Shown piece after piece: positions 2,423 to 13,932 of a stretch of 64,000 nucleotides of DNA. The DNA comes from a phage. Positions within the stretch are counted from its first letter, which is position 1; the number at the start of each line of letters is the position of its first letter. Both the position numbers and the translations under genes were made by a program. The stretch lies in sequence record PZ445440.1. One strand, written 5' to 3'. Below the pieces are notes generated by a model. That model searched no databases. It saw nothing but the letters and a program-made list of their open reading frames with translations, and was not told where the DNA came from.

Positions 2423-2498
2423 GCTAATTTCCTCAATTGATTAATGTTTTTGTAATCCATGAGAGCATTATACCCTGCTCTCAAGAGTTTGTACAATT

Positions 2499-2699
2499 TT
2501 ATTCGGCCATATCAGAACGTTCAAAAAGCTCTTCAACAGTTAAACATTCGGTGTCATCTTCAATAAAGAATCGAGTCCAACACGTTGGGGCAATACAGTT
2601 ATGAGTTTGTCCGGCGATAGAAGCTACACGAATAAGCTGCTGACCATTATTCAGAACAAATTTTTCACCAATTTCAACGTCTTTAAAAAGCTTAGCCAT
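2499..2699 (-). CDS. hypothetical protein (66 aa)
   Basis: ORF with GAGGAA Shine-Dalgarno and an early-type promoter upstream. Confidence 0.55.
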   Translation of the reverse strand: MAKLFKDVEIGEKFVLNNGQQLIRVASIAGQTHNCIAPTCWTRFFIEDDTECLTVEELFERSDMAE

Positions 2700-2727
2700 T
2701 TTGTGTTCCTCATGTTTCAGTAGGACT

Positions 2728-2757
2728 ACTATACCATAATCCTACCGTGATGTAAAC
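2728..2757 (-). promoter_or_regulatory. T4-type early promoter
   Basis: Minus strand GTTTAC (2757-2752), ~18-bp spacer, TATAGT; inverted repeat GTAGGA...TCCTAC around the -10. Confidence 0.45.
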
Positions 2758-2949
2758 AATTAAATTACATTAAAATATGTTAAAGCCAACCATGTTCCAG
2801 TGAACGAACATGCAATGTAAAAACCCGTATCGCAAATTGTTCTTAGTACAATAAGAAGTGCATTTTTCATAAGTACCTCAATACAATTGAAAATATTATA
2901 CAAATCATAGGGATACTAAGCAACCATATTCCGATCCACATTTTAGAGC

Positions 2950-3213
2950 TCATATCTCAACTTCCGCAAGTTCCATATATCCTTTGTTGATAACCTCTTT
3001 AAGGTCTTTAGAAAGAATAACACTAAAATGGTCGTTCATATGTCCATTAACTAAACGAGTTATTTCGGCTTCAGATGACATATAAGGCACGTCTGAGTCC
3101 CAATGAGATAGACCCAAATGGGTATAAATCATCCCTTCGTCATCTGTGGTGTTGTACATTGAAACAAACTCACCGGTCACTTTATGTTTTGCGTAGAAAA
3201 ATTTAAATTTCAT
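2950..3213 (-). CDS. hypothetical protein (87 aa)
   Basis: ORF in compact minus-strand gene array. Confidence 0.55.
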   Translation of the reverse strand: MKFKFFYAKHKVTGEFVSMYNTTDDEGMIYTHLGLSHWDSDVPYMSSEAEITRLVNGHMNDHFSVILSKDLKEVINKGYMELAEVEI

Positions 3214-3239
3214 GATGTTATCCTCTTTTAGATAGGACT

Positions 3240-3269
3240 ACTATATCATAGTCCTACTTAGTTGTAAAC
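3240..3269 (-). promoter_or_regulatory. T4-type early promoter with -10 embedded in inverted repeat TAGGACTA/TAGTCCTA
   Basis: Minus strand GTTTAC (3269-3264), 18-bp spacer, TATAGT; palindrome arms at 3233-3240 and 3249-3256. Confidence 0.45.
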
Positions 3270-3281
3270 ACTTTTATGAAA

Positions 3282-3839
3282 TTAAAGATGAAGATACCAC
3301 CCGTTGTAGTTGCTCTTGCGGACGATTTTCTTTAGGTCTTCATGGTCTCCCACGAACTTTATAGAATAAGAGAAGACGTCAGGTGAGGTTTCTTTGACAT
3401 CTAATATAATAATGCAATCTGCGACTCGATGATTCAAGAAGGGCCCTATATTGATTCCATTACCACCTGGGTAATCACCACTGTATCCTGTGGTAACCGA
3501 AATCCATTTAGAATCTATCTGGTGCGTCTTGACTTCTACACGAATTCCACAATACTTGGGATGGGCTAACACGTCCCATGCATACGTGTACGGGTCTTCT
3601 ACATCTTCAATACCTTTATTAACATATCCGTCTAGCCAATTTGCTACTACATACTCTGCAAAGACCGCAACCTTACAACGTCGAACAACGCCTTCTTTTA
3701 TTTGTCCTGGATCTTGTTTCAACGAGTACCGAGCAGTATCAGCGATCTTAACCTTCATTTCGCTAGTCAAAAACTCATTCGACAGGATAAATGTCGGAAG
3801 ACTCTTCAGCCTCAACAACCCCAAGTTCGTCTTTACCAT
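3282..3839 (-). CDS. denB: putative endonuclease IV (DenB-like) by position and size; start placed at internal Met with GAGG SD
   Basis: 185 aa from MVKTNLG..., same length as T4 DenB as I recall; immediately downstream of rIIB as in T4; sequence identity not verified. Confidence 0.45.
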   Translation of the reverse strand: MVKTNLGLLRLKSLPTFILSNEFLTSEMKVKIADTARYSLKQDPGQIKEGVVRRCKVAVFAEYVVANWLDGYVNKGIEDVEDPYTYAWDVLAHPKYCGIRVEVKTHQIDSKWISVTTGYSGDYPGGNGINIGPFLNHRVADCIIILDVKETSPDVFSYSIKFVGDHEDLKKIVRKSNYNGWYLHL

Positions 3840-4062
3840 AGATACCTCTGATGTGTAGTTCGCCAAAATAAATGCGGTCTCCTTCTTCAAGATATTCTGC
3901 ATCTACCGGTGGGATTTCAATAACAACTTCGTCGCATTCTAACCAGCCGTAGTGTGCATCGCCAGGATGTTTTACCAATTTAGCACAATAAACTGATTTA
4001 CACTTATGGTGACCACGAAGATTAGCAATTTTGGATTCTGATACGTCAAATGGATGAATCAT
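3775..4062 (-). CDS. hypothetical protein (95 aa); doubtful because it overlaps the denB-like start by 65 nt
   Basis: ORF following the rIIB terminator; track ORF N-terminus (4063-4101) is the terminator hairpin, so start moved to ATG at 4062. Confidence 0.3.
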   Translation of the reverse strand: MIHPFDVSESKIANLRGHHKCKSVYCAKLVKHPGDAHYGWLECDEVVIEIPPVDAEYLEEGDRIYFGELHIRGIYGKDELGVVEAEESSDIYPVE

Positions 4063-4072
4063 AATTACCCCT

Positions 4073-4099
4073 AAAGAAAAAAAGGGGACCGAAGTCCCC
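4073..4099 (-). terminator. intrinsic terminator after rIIB (GGGGAC-UUCG-GUCCCC + U-tract)
   Basis: Plus strand aaagaaaaaaa-ggggac-cgaa-gtcccc; on minus-strand RNA a UUCG-tetraloop hairpin followed by U7. Confidence 0.65.
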
Positions 4100-4104
4100 A
4101 ATTA

Positions 4105-5040
4105 TTATTCTGCAAATAATTCAGTAACGTCTGAAATTACTTCATAACGACAAGTACGCATCTTAGCATCACCATAGTCAACCGGGATGGATACAACATC
4201 ACGTGGATGAACTTTAACTTTCACAACTTTATCTGAGCTTGAACCAAAGTGGCGAATATAAGATTTAGCACAAACGTGGAGACCGCGAGAACAGGTTTGA
4301 GTATCATCGTCGTTAACTCGAGTACGAGGCATTGAAACAACTTTACCTGGGGAGTTATCAAATGTACCACTATAGCAGTCTAAATAGTCCTTACGAACTA
4401 CTTTCCATGCATAGAAATGTCCGTCTTCAGTGATTTCAATATCATTTGCAACCAAGAAGTCGAATAAACGTTGTACAGCTTTTTCGCTCGGGTTTTCTAA
4501 CAGGTTTTCAAGGAACGGCAGATAGAATTTAAAGTCTTCACCTTTTTCCATGGAATCAATAATACGGTTAACCAGTCCTGAACGAATCTCTATACCTTGA
4601 TAAAATAAACTACCACCTTCAATAGTAACATTACCATCAACAAACTTAGTAATAGCTTTCTTGACGTTAATAAGTTCGACAGCTTTACTAAGGTTTCCTG
4701 CGACCAGATTAGCTTTAATTTCTTCAAAATTTGCATGACTTGATGGGGTCGCATTGTATGCTACGCGTCCTTCAATAATTGAAATAAATTTAGATGACGC
4801 GTTCCATACGATTTCAGGACGGTGTCCGCCGATAATAGGTTCATCATTTTCTGGGATCTGTTCTTCGTCTTCAAATTCAGCTGCTTTCTCTTCAGCTTTA
4901 AAATTCTTAACAATCTTACGAAGAGTATCTGTTGAAATGTCGAAGTAATCGGCAATTTCTTTACGAGTCCATTTGCCTGATTCAACCAGGCCGTAAGCTT
5001 CTAACTGTTCTTCTTGGGACAAGCATTTAATATTGTACAT
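4105..5040 (-). CDS. rIIB: rIIB membrane-associated protein
   Basis: 311 aa (T4 rIIB 312 aa as I recall); adjacent to rIIA; synteny. Confidence 0.85.
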   Translation of the reverse strand: MYNIKCLSQEEQLEAYGLVESGKWTRKEIADYFDISTDTLRKIVKNFKAEEKAAEFEDEEQIPENDEPIIGGHRPEIVWNASSKFISIIEGRVAYNATPSSHANFEEIKANLVAGNLSKAVELINVKKAITKFVDGNVTIEGGSLFYQGIEIRSGLVNRIIDSMEKGEDFKFYLPFLENLLENPSEKAVQRLFDFLVANDIEITEDGHFYAWKVVRKDYLDCYSGTFDNSPGKVVSMPRTRVNDDDTQTCSRGLHVCAKSYIRHFGSSSDKVVKVKVHPRDVVSIPVDYGDAKMRTCRYEVISDVTELFAE

Positions 5041-5049
5041 AATGTTTCC

Positions 5050-7263
5050 TTATTTGGCCGCTTCCACGGCCTTCATGAATTTAACGATTTGAGCGACCTG
5101 TTCTTTGGAAAGAGTACCACGTCGTCCCATGTATTCTGACACAATATGATAATTGGTTTCGAATTCAATAACCATTTTATCATCATTATCGTAAGCATTA
5201 TCTTTAAGCTTATCGAAAATTTTAGCACACAATTCTAACTTCTTATTCAGGTCTGTATTAGTAGCACCTGCGAATCGATTCCATCCCCAACGATTATTTA
5301 CTGTTGAGAGTTTTGCAAAGTCTTTACTGATTTCTTTGTTCTTAGAGCTAAAATACTTACTAAGGAAATTAAGCTCTTCATTACGAGTAATATGATTCAA
5401 ATAAGGCTGTGCTCTACGACTTGGTGATACATACTCATCATAATCTACTTTATCGATTAGCATAATATAGTCATTAATTGATTTTTCGAACAAGCATTCT
5501 ACTTCACCAAGTTTACGAACTTTCTTAGCAATCTGTGGACGAACTACATTGAACTCTTTAATACCTGACAAATCAGCAATACGGGTCAAGAAATTAGAGT
5601 CATAGTTCAACCAACCTTTATCTGCGTCAAGACATTCAGCATTAGAACGATTACGAACTATAGCATAACCTTGGATTTCATCAGCTTCACTCGCTGGAAT
5701 AAAGAGATCTTCTGATACCCAAACATCGTTTTCATTCTTAAAGAACCGATGAGCACTTGGCGATTTAGGACGAGGCTCATTAGTCCGTTTCCTGACTTCA
5801 ATCCATGGCTTAACGATTTGTAAAAGCTCTGAAGTCTTGTACATGTTAATGTTGTCGCCATCAAAGATAACTTTAAGGCGTTCCAGAAGTTTCATTGCAT
5901 CTTCGTCTGTAGGGTCAACGAATAGTACGCTTTTACCAAAACCGCGTGGAACTTTACCAGTTAATTTAACCTCGTCTTTAGACATTTCAATTGAATTAAG
6001 AGCTCGCATTAATGGAACGCGTCCCTTAACGTCGTCAATAACAATTTCAACGTTTTTAATGTTAATGCCAATCAGACTGTTAATTGAAATGGTTGCCGTT
6101 GAGCTACCGCTTTCACGAATACGACGAAGACGAGGGGATTCAACGATATCGTATACGACGCCAAGATTACACCATTCAGGTCCCATTTTAAAACGTTTGT
6201 ACAACTCAGAATAAGTTAGTTGTTCTTTAGAGTATTTCAGTGATTCAATATTAGACCCGGCCTTTTCCATGTATTTACGAGCGGTATAGCCAAGAGAATC
6301 AATTTCACGGAACACATGACGTGGGTATTTACAATCAATCCATTTCTTAGAATCTTCAGCGAACAATTTAGCATCGATTTCTGCAACGCGTTTATGGATA
6401 TTTGCTACTGTACGTTTATCAAATGACAATGCTTCACGAGACGGGGCTACATCTAGTTCACCCATAGGGAATTTAATATAAGCTGTAGTGCACCGCGTCA
6501 TCATCCATGTTTGTTCTTTAATAACACTTCCGATTGGATATACAATACCACCATAAACAGCCATGATATTACCACGTTCACCCCATGGAGCTTCCTTGGC
6601 CAAATATACATCGTCAAATTCTGGGAAGTATTTAATATCTTTAACACCGCGAACTTCTGCAATATCACCTAGAGGACGCATAACATATGCAATTTCGGAT
6701 GCGAACTTTTCAAAATCTTCCGGGTTAACCGGTACAACTACTTCTACACCCGTACGGTCATTAGGGCCCATCTTATCTACAAAGGTCGGCTTAATTTGTG
6801 GACCTGTGTCATCTTGGTAGATTACGTAACCACGAACTTCGCCATTGTGATAAGACGTAAGGTTAAACGTATCAGTATATGCTAGTGGAGCTTTAGAACC
6901 GAGTCCGAATCCACCAATGAAATCGTTACTCGATGTTTTAGTTGAAGCAAAATATGAGTTATAAATTCCTGGTTCTTCATCATTACCACGAATAGTGAAA
7001 TCACTCATACCAGGACCAAAGTCTCGAACTACAAAACGTGGGTCTAAACGACCTGGAGCCTGAACAATAAATTTATCAGTGCAACCATTAAGAATTTGTC
7101 CATCTATACAGTTTGTGATTAATTCACGTACACAAGCCAATTCTTTGTTTGTATAAAGGTCATTAGACAAAATCTTATAAACTTTACTATTGCCTTGAAT
7201 AGTGAATGCTGTGCTCTTACCGCCTGAACCAATAATCGTTTCTTTAGCCGTTTCAATAATCAT
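5050..7263 (-). CDS. rIIA: rIIA protein (GHKL ATPase-like N-terminal domain)
   Basis: 737 aa; N-terminus MIIETAKETIIGSGGKSTAFTI...LYTNKELACVRELITNCIDG resembles T4 rIIA. Confidence 0.9.
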   Translation of the reverse strand: MIIETAKETIIGSGGKSTAFTIQGNSKVYKILSNDLYTNKELACVRELITNCIDGQILNGCTDKFIVQAPGRLDPRFVVRDFGPGMSDFTIRGNDEEPGIYNSYFASTKTSSNDFIGGFGLGSKAPLAYTDTFNLTSYHNGEVRGYVIYQDDTGPQIKPTFVDKMGPNDRTGVEVVVPVNPEDFEKFASEIAYVMRPLGDIAEVRGVKDIKYFPEFDDVYLAKEAPWGERGNIMAVYGGIVYPIGSVIKEQTWMMTRCTTAYIKFPMGELDVAPSREALSFDKRTVANIHKRVAEIDAKLFAEDSKKWIDCKYPRHVFREIDSLGYTARKYMEKAGSNIESLKYSKEQLTYSELYKRFKMGPEWCNLGVVYDIVESPRLRRIRESGSSTATISINSLIGINIKNVEIVIDDVKGRVPLMRALNSIEMSKDEVKLTGKVPRGFGKSVLFVDPTDEDAMKLLERLKVIFDGDNINMYKTSELLQIVKPWIEVRKRTNEPRPKSPSAHRFFKNENDVWVSEDLFIPASEADEIQGYAIVRNRSNAECLDADKGWLNYDSNFLTRIADLSGIKEFNVVRPQIAKKVRKLGEVECLFEKSINDYIMLIDKVDYDEYVSPSRRAQPYLNHITRNEELNFLSKYFSSKNKEISKDFAKLSTVNNRWGWNRFAGATNTDLNKKLELCAKIFDKLKDNAYDNDDKMVIEFETNYHIVSEYMGRRGTLSKEQVAQIVKFMKAVEAAK

Positions 7264-7568: not shown

Positions 7569-8669
7569 TTACGCTGTGAAGATTTTATCCCACATCGCAA
7601 CAACTGCATCTCGATTATACTTCTTCCATACTGCTTCAGCACGTTTAACTCGAGCTTCGTATGTGTCAGTGAATTCTAATACAGCTTTTGTGTAAAGCGC
7701 AACTACTTCTTTCTTAGGAGTAGAGGAATCAATTTCTACACGCACAGTATCTGGGTCGTATTCGAATGTCGCATGAGGATAATCCTTAAAAACTAACTGG
7801 ATTACAGGGACACCTTTAGAGATGGCTTCAATAGAACTATTCTCTACCGTACCTGTGTCAGGACACGTATTAATAAGTGCTTTAGCTGTTTTAAGACGTT
7901 CCATGATTTCACTGTGTGGAGCATCAATAATAACAGGATACTTAGCCGGTGGTGCCCATTTGCTTGGACAGTATCCTGCACCATTTTCGCCTAGTGCTTT
8001 AATCGCTTCAAGAGCAACATCAGTACGACGCATTTTAGTGTCATAACGTTGTGCACTAATAATCAGATCAGTCGCCGGAAGAACTTCAGGTTTCTCATTC
8101 AAACAAATAACTGGATAATCTTCGGCTTCAAACAACGGATTTGCTCGCCAATAATCATAATCAATTTTGTCAGTCAGACCTGAAGTCATATAACAATATT
8201 TGCGTTCAAATTCACGGAAGGCTTTAGTAGGAGCATAACTCTTACCACCATTCTTATGAATTTGAATAGTCTGGTCCCAAATTTGAACAATGCCACGAGA
8301 TACCGGTTCAAATGGTGTTGCCATAAAATTCTTATGAACTTTAGAGAGACCTGCGTCTTTAATTGCCTGAACGGTTAGTTTAGTCGGTTCCGTAGTAACA
8401 ACAAAATCGTATTCATGGATGTCGGCTAGTTCAACAATCTTACGAGCCATAGTATAACTCATACCTAGACTGAATTTAGTCAGATGACCAACAGGATGAT
8501 GATTAACTTTCCAGTCACCAAACGTGTCATTATCAAAACCGATATAATCAATATCGGCACCAATAGAAACTAAATATTTCAACACATTTAAATGTACTGC
8601 TTCAAGACCACCTTGTACACGTTCTGGGTTAAATGGGACTGCGCGCGATGGGATAAACATAACTTTCAT
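7569..8669 (-). CDS. GT-B fold glycosyltransferase, candidate DNA (hmC) arabinosyltransferase
   Basis: 366 aa; C-terminal GTVENSSIEAISKGVPVI resembles the GT1/GT4 nucleotide-sugar binding motif; occupies the T4 gene 60/mobA slot; no T4 counterpart. Confidence 0.6.
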   Translation of the reverse strand: MKVMFIPSRAVPFNPERVQGGLEAVHLNVLKYLVSIGADIDYIGFDNDTFGDWKVNHHPVGHLTKFSLGMSYTMARKIVELADIHEYDFVVTTEPTKLTVQAIKDAGLSKVHKNFMATPFEPVSRGIVQIWDQTIQIHKNGGKSYAPTKAFREFERKYCYMTSGLTDKIDYDYWRANPLFEAEDYPVICLNEKPEVLPATDLIISAQRYDTKMRRTDVALEAIKALGENGAGYCPSKWAPPAKYPVIIDAPHSEIMERLKTAKALINTCPDTGTVENSSIEAISKGVPVIQLVFKDYPHATFEYDPDTVRVEIDSSTPKKEVVALYTKAVLEFTDTYEARVKRAEAVWKKYNRDAVVAMWDKIFTA

Positions 8670-8680
8670 AATTAAGCCTT

Positions 8681-8713
8681 ATTAAAATTAAAATGAAGCT
8701 CCCGAAGGAGCTT
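8681..8713 (-). terminator. intrinsic terminator after gene 39 (UUCG tetraloop hairpin + U-rich tract)
   Basis: Plus aagctcc-cgaa-ggagctt preceded by A-rich run; hairpin overlaps the gene 39 stop codon. Confidence 0.55.
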
Positions 8714-10529
8714 AGGACATCCATTCTTTACGAAGTTCTGAATCATCACCCATCAACATTTCAAAGAGTTCTTTCCAATTTTCAGGAAGTTTAACTACGT
8801 CGTACACAGGGTTCTGAATCATTTCACGATATTCTGACTTTTCAAGGGAGCCTAATCCCTTGATGTATCGAATACTATGCTTAGGCAGTGTATCTTTAAC
8901 TTCTTCATACTCAGCTACAGTATAAAACCATTTTTGAGTTTTGCCAATTTGTGCAATAATTACAGGCGTTTTAACAAAGCGAATACGTCCTTGTTCGAAC
9001 AATTCAGGCCAATTACTAAAGAAAGCAAGCAAAGCCGGATAGATACTTCCAAGACCGTCGTGATCTGCATCAGTCATAATTGCAATATTACGATAGTTCG
9101 TATTCTCTGCCTTTTCACCAAGAATAAGACCTGTGATAGCACAGATATCGAAGAGCTCTTTGTTCTTCATCATATCAGCATATGACATACCCCAGCTATT
9201 CATCACCTTACCACGTAATGGGAATCCGCCGTGTAGTTCACGGTCACGAACATCAATGAGATAACCAATTGCCGAATCACCTTCTGTTAAGAACAATGTC
9301 GTATCTGCATCTTTACCACATTGGTTAGCTTTAATATGCTTATGAACCTTAGCTTTAGTTGCCTTTTTAGCTGCTTTAGTTTCTGCAGCCTTTTCTGCTG
9401 CCAATTTACGAGCTAATGCTGCTTCAACAATAGGCATAATCAAGGCTTCGTTTTTAAGAAGCGCCTGAGCAATTTTCTTAGCATCTAATTGGATATGATT
9501 ACGAATATCACCATACGTTGACGTTAAACGTTCTTTAGTCTGAGAATCAAAACGCATGTTGCTCATGTCTCTAATAAACATCAACATTGTGAGGCATTCT
9601 TTAACACGAGCTTTAGTGACTTCAATACCCTTATATTTCTTTTTAATACCCGGCAAAAGATGTTCGCAGATATCATCCATTACACATTCAACATGATGAC
9701 CACCATTTTTAGTATGGATGTTATTCACATAAGTTAAATGACGGAAGCCATCTGGTGATGTTGTGAATGCTATAGAGACTTTATCATTTTCTTGAATGAT
9801 GTTATCTTCACCAAATTGTTTAGCAAATCGTTTAAAATTACCATCAACCTTTTTACCATTAAATGTGAACTTGATGTCAGGATAAACGACTGCCAATGTT
9901 TGAAGTCGGTCTAAAGTAATATCTAAATAAATTTGAGATAAATTATGCTCTTCAAATGAAGTGAAATCAGGAGTGAAGATTACTTTAGTGCCTCTACCTT
10001 TAGATTTCTTAGAAGACCATGATTTGTTTTCCATTCCGTTTGAACAGTTAACAGTGATTTCATTTTCGCCATCTGACGTGATGCCTGTAAACAACGTAGA
10101 GAAGATATTAGTTAAACTACTCCCGACACCGTTCATACCACCAGTCTTGCGTTCAGAGTCATCGCCAAAGTTACCACCGGCCTTTGGAATAGTCCAGGCT
10201 GCTACAGGCCCAGGAATTTGTTCACCTGTTTGGTCGGTAACTAAACCTTGAGGAATACCACGTCCGTTATCTTCCACCGAAACTTGATTATTTTTAATTT
10301 GCACATCAATTTTATTTGCAAACTTAAATGATGTACGAATAGCTTCATCAACCGAGTTGTCAATAATCTCATCGATTAATTTAACCAGACCAGGAACATA
10401 TTCAACTTGTTGATATTTACCAAACAAAAAACGCTCGTGGGCTTCTTTAGCCGAAGAACCAATATACATACCACTACGTTTCTTAATATGTTCTACATCT
10501 GACAATACCTTAATTTCATTTTTAATCAT
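8712..10529 (-). CDS. 39: DNA topoisomerase II large subunit, fused gp39+gp60 equivalent (GyrB-like ATPase + Toprim)
   Basis: 605-aa continuous ORF; ATPase motifs (IDNSVDEA, GGNFGDDS) and Toprim region (LTEGDSA, DADHDG); no split or bypass element. Confidence 0.9.
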   Translation of the reverse strand: MIKNEIKVLSDVEHIKKRSGMYIGSSAKEAHERFLFGKYQQVEYVPGLVKLIDEIIDNSVDEAIRTSFKFANKIDVQIKNNQVSVEDNGRGIPQGLVTDQTGEQIPGPVAAWTIPKAGGNFGDDSERKTGGMNGVGSSLTNIFSTLFTGITSDGENEITVNCSNGMENKSWSSKKSKGRGTKVIFTPDFTSFEEHNLSQIYLDITLDRLQTLAVVYPDIKFTFNGKKVDGNFKRFAKQFGEDNIIQENDKVSIAFTTSPDGFRHLTYVNNIHTKNGGHHVECVMDDICEHLLPGIKKKYKGIEVTKARVKECLTMLMFIRDMSNMRFDSQTKERLTSTYGDIRNHIQLDAKKIAQALLKNEALIMPIVEAALARKLAAEKAAETKAAKKATKAKVHKHIKANQCGKDADTTLFLTEGDSAIGYLIDVRDRELHGGFPLRGKVMNSWGMSYADMMKNKELFDICAITGLILGEKAENTNYRNIAIMTDADHDGLGSIYPALLAFFSNWPELFEQGRIRFVKTPVIIAQIGKTQKWFYTVAEYEEVKDTLPKHSIRYIKGLGSLEKSEYREMIQNPVYDVVKLPENWKELFEMLMGDDSELRKEWMS

Positions 10530-10570
10530 GTTGTCTCCTCGTTATGAAGGTATTCTATCATCCGAAATCT

Positions 10571-10594
10571 AAAGCAAAAAGGGCCGAAGCCCTT
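10571..10594 (-). terminator. intrinsic terminator (GGGC-UUCG-GCCC hairpin + U-tract)
   Basis: Plus aaagcaaaaa-gggc-cgaa-gccc at the stop of ORF 10593-11018. Confidence 0.5.
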
Positions 10595-11018
10595 ATTTAA
10601 ATTTAATTTTCTGAAGTGCATCAATTGCAGCCAAACGCCCTTGTTCACTTTTAACTGTAATGACCACATCGCCTGATACGATCACCGAACCATCAACAAA
10701 TTCTATAGAGCCTTTTTTGAAATCGACAGCTGTATCTGGTTCCGGAACTTCTTCAAAGAATTTAAATTCTGCACCATAAAGCAGAATATCACCTTGCATA
10801 CTATGAATAGTTCGGCCATAATCGCCTACGGCTTCTACAGCAATAACCGAAACACCGTAGCCAATCATCTCTTCCACAATAAAATCTTTGGACAATAAAG
10901 TAGTATGCAGATTAGTATTAAGACGTTTACCAGTCGTATTAAGAATTCTCAAGAAATTATCTTCCTGTCCTTTGATAATACGATATTTCTTACCAACTTC
11001 AAAACCTTTAAAAGCCAT
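10593..11018 (-). CDS. hypothetical protein, possibly GoF-like by size and position (141 aa)
   Basis: 141-aa ORF upstream of gene 39; T4 goF occupies the equivalent position; identity not verified. Confidence 0.4.
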   Translation of the reverse strand: MAFKGFEVGKKYRIIKGQEDNFLRILNTTGKRLNTNLHTTLLSKDFIVEEMIGYGVSVIAVEAVGDYGRTIHSMQGDILLYGAEFKFFEEVPEPDTAVDFKKGSIEFVDGSVIVSGDVVITVKSEQGRLAAIDALQKIKFK

Positions 11019-11020
11019 AA

Positions 11021-11200
11021 TTAACCCTTCTTAAGTAAATCGTAAAAACCACCGTTCACATGTTTAGGAGCAGAAACCCGACGAGTAGACATACGATGAC
11101 ATTCAGGGCAAACATCGTTTTCTCGTTCAGAAATTCTTTTAATTTTTTCATATTCATGACCACAATCTTCAGATTGGCATTTATAGTCGTATAACGGCAT
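11021..11200 (-). CDS. small zinc-ribbon protein (59 aa, CxxC...CxxC)
   Basis: Hand translation MPLYDYKCQSEDCGHEYEKIKRISEREDDVCPECHRMSTRRVSAPKHVNGGFYDLLKKG; fits exactly between flanking ORFs. Confidence 0.6.
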   Translation of the reverse strand: MPLYDYKCQSEDCGHEYEKIKRISERENDVCPECHRMSTRRVSAPKHVNGGFYDLLKKG

Positions 11201-12481: not shown

Positions 12482-12901
12482 TTATGCGAAAGCAGCTGGG
12501 CTATATTTTTTAATTTGGAATTCAGGAACTACCATGAACTGTCCAGCGAAAACGATGTTATAAAGCTTAACACCATCTTCTACCCAACGGTCGCTAATAA
12601 ATCCGGCGATTTGCTTAGTTTTCCATGGTGTTCCATCAGTTGCCGCAGCAATAGTGAATTCATGGTCTTTTTCAACAGAAACTGATCTGCATAGTCCCCA
12701 TTTGAACGCTTTTTCTTCTGGTTCAATGAATTGGCTTGAGACGTAGCCAATATTACCATTAGCATCACGAACTTTAACTTGGTTACGACCAAAAACCGGA
12801 TCACTCACAGAAAGAACTTCAACCAACTTCCCGGCAACTTTAGAGCGAGAAGCAACAGATACATATACGTAATCACCTGTAGAGAGATTTACAATATTCA
12901 T
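12482..12901 (-). CDS. member A of tandem paralog family (139 aa), function unknown
   Basis: Shares N-terminal SxASRSKxAGKLVEV and C-terminal GFISDRWVEDGxKLYNIVFxGxFxVV motifs with the next two genes; TTG start with AAGGA SD. Confidence 0.7.
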   Translation of the reverse strand: MNIVNLSTGDYVYVSVASRSKVAGKLVEVLSVSDPVFGRNQVKVRDANGNIGYVSSQFIEPEEKAFKWGLCRSVSVEKDHEFTIAAATDGTPWKTKQIAGFISDRWVEDGVKLYNIVFAGQFMVVPEFQIKKYSPAAFA

Positions 12902-12910
12902 AATAATTCC

Positions 12911-13375
12911 TTAAGCTTTACGAGGAGACACATAGCGAGTGATTTCAGATTCTTTAACAACTCGGAAGTCACCTAAGAATACGATATTGTATAACTTTTC
13001 ACCATCTTCAACCCATTGGTCACTAATGAAGCCACACATAGTATCAGTTTTGCTTGGATAACCGTATTCATCGATGAAGTCAAATTCTTTATCAGTCTGG
13101 AATTCAACACCTTTACACAAGGCCCATTTGAACTGTGTAGTAGGCTCAACGATATCGCTTGAAGCAAAGTGGGCACTTACACGAGTTTCCAAGAATTTAG
13201 GACTTACATAGGCGAACTGAGTTTCAGTTTTTCCAGAACTAGGAATGATTCGAACTTTAACTTCTTTAATATGGCCCATGCCATTAGTACGAAGTCCTAC
13301 TACTTCAACCAGCTTTCCTGCAGCTTTAGAACGAGACGCTGTCGATACACGTTTAATTTCACCAATATTAATCAT
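12911..13375 (-). CDS. member B of tandem paralog family (154 aa from internal ATG)
   Basis: Motif CGFISDQWVEDGEKLYNIVFLGDFRVV; track ORF N-terminus overlaps the upstream promoter so start moved to MINIGEIK. Confidence 0.65.
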   Translation of the reverse strand: MINIGEIKRVSTASRSKAAGKLVEVVGLRTNGMGHIKEVKVRIIPSSGKTETQFAYVSPKFLETRVSAHFASSDIVEPTTQFKWALCKGVEFQTDKEFDFIDEYGYPSKTDTMCGFISDQWVEDGEKLYNIVFLGDFRVVKESEITRYVSPRKA

Positions 13376-13405
13376 ATTTTTTCTCTCTTTGTTTAAGTTG
13401 AATTC

Positions 13406-13436
13406 ATTATACTCCATCCATCCTTGGATGTAAAAC
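13406..13436 (-). promoter_or_regulatory. early promoter, member of the conserved 29-bp module family (variant -35)
   Basis: Plus ttatactccatccatccttggatgtaaaac; near-identical to modules at 13963, 55771 and 56792. Confidence 0.45.
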
Positions 13437-13437
13437 A

Positions 13438-13932
13438 TTAATTAAGAATATTAACTACTGCACTACGTGGAACAACACTAAAATCACCTGCATGAACAAC
13501 GTTCAGAAGTTCAACACCGTCTTCAATCCACTGGTCAGTTACCCAGCCACTTACCGGTCCAGCGAACGGACGTCGAATTGAAACAGCTTTACACAACAAA
13601 TCAGTAGGCTCAATAGGCTTAATCAGAGTACCGTACATACAAGCGATATCCATATCAATACAGATGTCTTTAACGGGTTCTACTTCTTCAATCAACAGTT
13701 CAAAGTCGGTGTTTGGAAGGGCGGTAGTAGAAATTGTACCGTATGAATTTTTAATTTCTAAGAATAACCAAGGGCCTTCAGCTTGTTTGATAAAGTTAAC
13801 AATAGTGAAACTATTACCTTGAGTGGCACCTAAAATTTCGCAAAACTTTTCATAAGCTCGCACTGAAGCGCCGTACCAGTTGATTTGTTTTTCGTCTTTC
13901 AGGATGTAAGTAGCCGTAGTATTGATATTCAT
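13438..13932 (-). CDS. member C of tandem paralog family (164 aa from internal ATG)
   Basis: C-terminal GWVTDQWIEDGVELLNVVHAGDFSVV shares the family motif; track ORF start (TTG) lies inside the promoter -10. Confidence 0.65.
   Translation of the reverse strand: MNINTTATYILKDEKQINWYGASVRAYEKFCEILGATQGNSFTIVNFIKQAEGPWLFLEIKNSYGTISTTALPNTDFELLIEEVEPVKDICIDMDIACMYGTLIKPIEPTDLLCKAVSIRRPFAGPVSGWVTDQWIEDGVELLNVVHAGDFSVVPRSAVVNILN

Follow-up and report, generated by a model that had tools for sequence, protein, structure and literature searches.

An unsplit gene 39 for the topoisomerase II large subunit in a T4-type phage

Results

The topoisomerase gene and its surroundings

The window analysed here, a stretch of 64,000 nucleotides from phage record PZ445440.1, is AT-rich (G+C ~37%) and carries on its minus strand one ORF of 605 codons that starts with ATG and has no internal stop (Table 1). 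As the DNA has only 37% G+C, a frame of this length cannot stay open by chance. The gene (1,818 bases) is 100% identical to its counterpart in Escherichia phage ChristianSchoenbein (MZ501056.1; Straboviridae, Tevenvirinae, Mosigvirus phapec2), in which the CDS bas46_0104 is already annotated as 'type II topoisomerase large subunit'. A DNA match of at least 95% identity to the topoisomerase gene was found in ~144 further records.

Table 1. Features of the topoisomerase locus and its partner gene, in window coordinates.
Feature	Position	Strand	Basis
Unsplit gene 39, DNA topoisomerase II large (GyrB/ParE-like) subunit, 605 aa	8712..10529	-	ORF; identity to MZ501056.1; Pfam HATPase_c, DNA_gyraseB, TOPRIM_C; best PDB match T6 gp39 8YLU
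GHKL ATPase domain, residues ~1-230 (domain end ~230 approximate)	9840..10529	-	PF02518, residues 47-190, E=2.9e-11
Transducer domain, residues 249-385, with QTK loop 330-332	9375..9785	-	PF00204, E=2.8e-14; QTK located
TOPRIM metal-binding core: EGDSA 416-420, PLRGK 437-441, DADHDG 487-492	9054..9284	-	Motif scan; alignment with T4 gp39/gp60
Equivalent of the T4 39/mobA/60 split, codons 474-477	9099..9110	-	Codon alignment of window, T2 and T4; blastn breakpoints
Equivalent of the T4 50-nt coding gap: Gly492 (GGT) followed directly by Leu493 (CTT)	9051..9056	-	blastn; codon alignment
C-terminal TOPRIM-associated domain, residues 520-604, within the gp60-homologous part	8718..8972	-	PF16898, E=2.4e-6
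Partner subunit, gene 52 homolog (GyrA/ParC-like DNA breakage-reunion), 441 aa	308..1633	-	PF00521 DNA_topoisoIV, residues 27-429, E=4.6e-78
Shine-Dalgarno sequence GAGGAG, five bases upstream of the ATG	10535..10540	-	Read from sequence
UUCG-loop hairpin then T-run, upstream of the gene and overlapping the end of the preceding ORF; putative terminator	10579..10594	-	Pattern scan
UUCG-loop hairpin on the stop codon, then T-rich tail; terminator-like	8696..8713	-	Pattern scan; terminator annotated under the match in relatives NBG1 and PhAPEC2

Terminator-like sites were enriched around the gene, with six in 8500-11100 against 1.2 expected from shuffled sequences. Both of the UUCG-tetraloop hairpins flanking the gene are GC-rich. 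Sigma-70 promoters were not in excess around the gene (eight sites against 9.2 expected from shuffles) in a scan confined to this class of promoter.

The neighbourhood is that of T2 and T6, with rIIA and rIIA.1 downstream of the topoisomerase gene, and 39.2-like, goF and cef genes upstream. The rIIA homolog (5050-7263, minus strand; 737 aa) is annotated as such, but Pfam yielded nothing for it at E<=1e-3. A 366-aa ORF of this phage (7569-8669, minus strand) lies between the topoisomerase gene, which it directly follows, and rIIA.1; T2 and T4 have no gene at this place. It is annotated as 'putative hmC-arabinosyltransferase' in the source record, had no Pfam match at E<=1e-3, and is as long as RB69 ORF003c, the proposed ara-hmC transferase (PMC6024577). 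On the other side of the topoisomerase gene, a 59-aa ORF (11021-11200, minus strand) with two CxxC pairs (CQSEDC ... CPEC) looks zinc-ribbon-like and stands where T4 has its 39.2 'FmdB-like' gene. Two adjacent ORFs of 139 and 175 aa (12482-12901 and 12911-13438, both minus strand), annotated as hypothetical, form a tandem pair of paralogs (43% identity, E=4e-32) with a common C-terminal block, GFISD.WVEDG.KLYNIVF. Over a 13.8-kb stretch of the source record, every annotated gene lies on the minus strand of the window, and GC skew is negative in each 2-kb bin of 1-64000 (cumulative -2.63).

The 605-aa protein has the architecture of a type IIA B subunit

The ATPase domain carries the three GHKL motifs, namely the N-box EIIDNSVDE (residues 54-62), G1 DNGRGIP (87-93) and G2 GGMNGVG (130-136). 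Whereas T4 shares out the TOPRIM motifs EGDSA, PLRGK and DADHDG between gp39 and gp60, all of them are here on one polypeptide. The C-terminal domain scored marginally below the curated cut-off of PF16898 (TOPRIM_C; 28.2 bits versus 29), which is immaterial given the 87% identity of this part to gp60. With a GHKL fold, a transducer domain with its QTK loop, TOPRIM with its catalytic Glu (EGDSA) and DxDxD acidic cluster on a single polypeptide and a predicted A-type partner in the same genome, the protein has the domains and motifs of a type IIA B subunit.

The T2 gene 39 product has the same length of 605 aa and is identical at 497/606 aligned positions (~82%; 1+1 gap positions), leaving ~18% amino-acid divergence between the two proteins. 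Among PDB entries, the best match was full-length T6 gp39 (8YLU and related entries, 1160 bits), and the two proteins are colinear over their full length (8YLU, 8YO1, 8YOD and others). T2 and T6 also share the GHKL-transducer-TOPRIM architecture and a gp52 partner subunit with this phage. It was followed in this HMMER search by the engineered fusion of T4 gp39 and gp60, human TOP2A/B, yeast Top2 and bacterial ParE/GyrB, each of which aligned as one single stretch; this covered residues 7-604 for ParE and 10-571 for human TOP2A. ParE/GyrB and the N-terminal half of eukaryotic Topo II have the same domain order and catalytic motifs and are continuous across the T4 split site, but they have diverged much further (E ~1e-48 to 1e-61).

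One reading frame corresponds to T4 genes 39 and 60

Comparison with the T4 reference record showed that residues 1-474 align with residues 1-473 of T4 gp39 (374/474 identical, 79%; one 1-residue gap), and residues 473-605 with residues 27-159 of T4 gp60 (116/133 identical, ~87%). True gp60 homology begins at residue 477, which corresponds to gp60 Met31, so that residues 477-605 pair with gp60 31-160. The last 43 residues of gp39 and the first 30 of gp60 have no counterpart in the 605-aa ORF. This single ORF, colinear with gp39 plus gp60 and lacking the ~70-aa TOPRIM insertion, is a gene 39 of the unsplit T2/T6 type.

At the nucleotide level, blastn matched positions 1-1421 of the gene to T4 gene 39 (nt 1-1418), positions 1431-1475 to the gene 60 segment directly before the take-off codon, and positions 1485-1812 to gene 60 downstream of the landing codon. 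By these breakpoints, the gene lacks, to the nucleotide, both the ~1-kb insert of T4 and its 50-nt gap. In T4, the insert consists of the gp39 tail, mobA, 60.1 and the gp60 head. A codon-by-codon alignment of the window, T2 and T4 placed the last gp39-like codon at 474 (Ala) and gp60 Met31 at codon 477; between them, codons 475-476 (Glu-Asn) are common to the window and T2 and lack an equivalent in T4. Where T4 has its bypass, its sequence is GAT GGA UAG ...(gap)... GGA UUA and that of the window GAC GGT CTT GGA AGT, with neither a GGA take-off codon nor a UAG stop nor a gap in the equivalent codons.

The coding sequence is orthologous to that of T4, and its TOPRIM DADHDG motif lies where T4 ribosomes take off. 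In contrast, the split of T4, its 43-aa gp39 tail, mobA/60.1, the 30-aa gp60 head with its nascent-peptide signal, the GGA-UAG take-off, the take-off stem-loop and the 50-nt gap are absent in this phage. An earlier note on this DNA had described a continuous 605-aa ORF that covers both T4 genes, and the alignments bear this out for the frame as well as for its colinearity. The note had proposed to align the protein with T4 gp39 and gp60, where the relatedness of the C-terminus to gp60 is evident from the 116/133 identical residues, and to search the junction for take-off or landing remnants; there are none, and Gly492 (GGT) reads straight through. Its estimate of a gp60-like C-terminus of ~90 aa was too low, however, the gp60-homologous part measuring ~129 aa.

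The uninterrupted junction is the norm

A segment of 91 residues that takes in the two points at which T4 is interrupted served as a query. ParE and GyrB aligned through this junction with only 1-2-residue indels, and the artificial T4 gp39-gp60 fusion aligned in two pieces around ~68 extra residues. By tblastn, the segment was present in one piece in 1,836/1,912 phage records with a homolog (96%), and only 41 phage records carried 80% or more of the insert of T4. At the DNA level (megablast), the junction was uninterrupted in all 162 matching close relatives.

The direction of change, read from the outgroups and from the distribution among phages, supports the uninterrupted gene as the ancestral arrangement. 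The earlier note had presumed as much, and its presumption gains support from the ParE/GyrB colinearity, the 96% of unsplit records and the lack of a CTE/NTE footprint (see below). The arrangement that it singled out is real in this phage, but is no peculiarity of it, since 1,836 of the 1,912 records share the unsplit state.

No remnant of a MobA element

For remnants of the T4 element, the window was probed by tblastn (word size 2, E up to 10) with the T4 CTE, NTE and CTE+NTE sequences (the C-terminal extension of ORF1 and the N-terminal extension of ORF2 that the element encodes) and with the intact MobA of phage G50; all matches were at chance level. In the full 64 kb, the best CTE and NTE matches (E=0.62 and 0.66) lay at unrelated positions, with none at the junction; the best MobA match had E=1.3, and none was at the topoisomerase locus. 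The locus thus holds no HNH homing endonuclease gene (mobA), no CTE or NTE and no ~50-nt gap with matched GGA codons and a stop or hungry codon after take-off, i.e. none of the hallmarks of a MobA element or a gene 60 bypass cassette. In the 48 nt that correspond to the homologous region of the element, the window agreed with T2 at 39/48 positions and with T4 at 37/48, and T2 with T4 at 35/48. Element-like polymorphisms in this segment were considered as a further marker; at these values they gave no signal and were uninformative.

The gene is almost certainly an intact, never-split T4-type topoisomerase II large subunit gene (ATPase plus TOPRIM), in which the element was either never acquired or left no trace; on either account, the structure on view here is that of the parental gene. 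We found no evidence that contradicts the never-split reading. A single ORF could also arise if a MobA element had once split the gene and was later excised, and such a secondary re-fusion ('hit and run') has been proposed for an Aeromonas phage clade; full-length Topo2L ORFs that keep CTE- and NTE-homologous insertions at the MobA site provide a precedent, and other clades have lost both endonuclease and bypass (Manning and Atkins, bioRxiv 10.1101/2022.08.31.505936). The known re-fusions retain their CTE/NTE tails, however, whereas the window has no similarity to CTE, NTE or MobA. Re-fusion is further at odds with a protein length exactly that of T2 gp39, the Glu-Asn codons that the junction has in common with T2, its colinearity with ParE/GyrB, the clean junction in 162/162 close relatives, and a 48-nt segment that resembles the copy in the T4 element (37/48) no more than it does T2 (39/48). 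We therefore regard an earlier insertion followed by excision as very improbable. A former insertion may also have been wiped out via recombination with an uninvaded relative, which would leave no trace at all. The parental reading stands on the outgroup colinearity, the distribution, the absence of a CTE/NTE footprint and the shared length with T2.

That the continuous ORF is an assembly or sequencing error hiding an insertion or frameshift is extremely unlikely, as nothing was found in favour of it, the uninterrupted junction recurs in 162 independently sequenced records of 84-100% identity and, at the protein level, in one piece in 1,836 records, and each catalytic motif of the 605-aa ORF is in frame.

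Discussion

The 605-aa product and the gp52 homolog, whose gene lies ~7 kb away, most likely form a pair, which would give an A2B2 type IIA topoisomerase like that of T2 and T6. By analogy with the T4 and T6 enzymes, the protein is predicted to dimerise through its ATPase domains and to join two gp52 subunits. ATP would be bound, and the gate duplex would be cleaved with Mg2+ held by the TOPRIM residues Glu416 and Asp487/489/491; a second duplex would then be passed through the transient break in an ATP-driven step, again as in the T4 and T6 enzymes, for both of which ATP-dependent strand passage has been shown biochemically (PMC11461880). The phage enzyme relaxes but does not supercoil DNA, and its overall architecture is reportedly nearer to the eukaryotic enzymes (PMC11461880). 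According to the 2024 Nat Commun paper on the structures of the T4 and T6 enzymes, the T2 and T6 enzyme consists of two subunits, and T4 has the sole three-subunit type IIA topoisomerase (PMC11461880).

The arrangement described here is already known: this is the ordinary unsplit gene, and the split-and-bypass version of T4 is the rare exception. T4 genes 39 and 60 derive from a split ancestral Topo2L gene, MobA and the bypass cassette constitute one mobile element that enters unsplit genes such as that of T2, and each invaded clade has near-identical uninserted 'parental' relatives (Manning and Atkins, bioRxiv 10.1101/2022.08.31.505936). The T4 state arose when this element, comprising the homing endonuclease MobA together with the 50-nt bypass cassette, entered the region that codes for TOPRIM.

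The unsplit gene has long been the standard comparator from which the 39/60 split and the 50-nt bypass of T4 were traced to a mobile element; T2 and T6 served to make this point decades ago, and in 2022 it was widened to many clades. The established literature on it includes Huang et al. 1988 and Bonocora et al. 2011, both of which Manning and Atkins cite. The window contributes a further example, one with the same sequence as a deposited and annotated gene, and carries little weight beyond confirming a correct annotation; its practical value lies only in offering an intact, naive MobA target site for homing work.

A separate question is why the element is missing from this lineage. All 162 close Mosigvirus/RB69-type relatives are uninvaded at the junction, and MobA-positive Tequatroviruses use the same E. 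coli hosts. By the description of Manning and Atkins (bioRxiv 10.1101/2022.08.31.505936), the MobA nick lies upstream of the gap site by ~20 nt, and near this reported nick the coding-constrained target differs from that of T2 at synonymous sites only. Because the relatives are uninvaded despite shared hosts and the target deviates from T2's only synonymously, the Mosigvirus/RB69-type lineage might be protected from MobA homing and not merely unvisited, although we consider this doubtful. Possible causes of such protection are the arabinosyl-hmC modification of the DNA or a failure to recombine with T4-type phages; RB69-type phages have arabinosyl-hmC DNA and reportedly do not recombine with T4 (PMC6024577). 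If protection were real, the gene would offer a natural system in which to examine how DNA hypermodification restricts homing endonucleases in their spread.

The comparisons also brought up annotation errors in related records. In the T2 record AP018813.1, the unsplit gene 39 (2447-4264) is mislabelled as 'hypothetical protein' and the rIIA.1 homolog (2189-2392) as 'transaldolase'. In phage G50 (3277-3809), gene 60 is entered as two separate CDS that bear a 'frameshift' note, since the annotation does not model the bypass.
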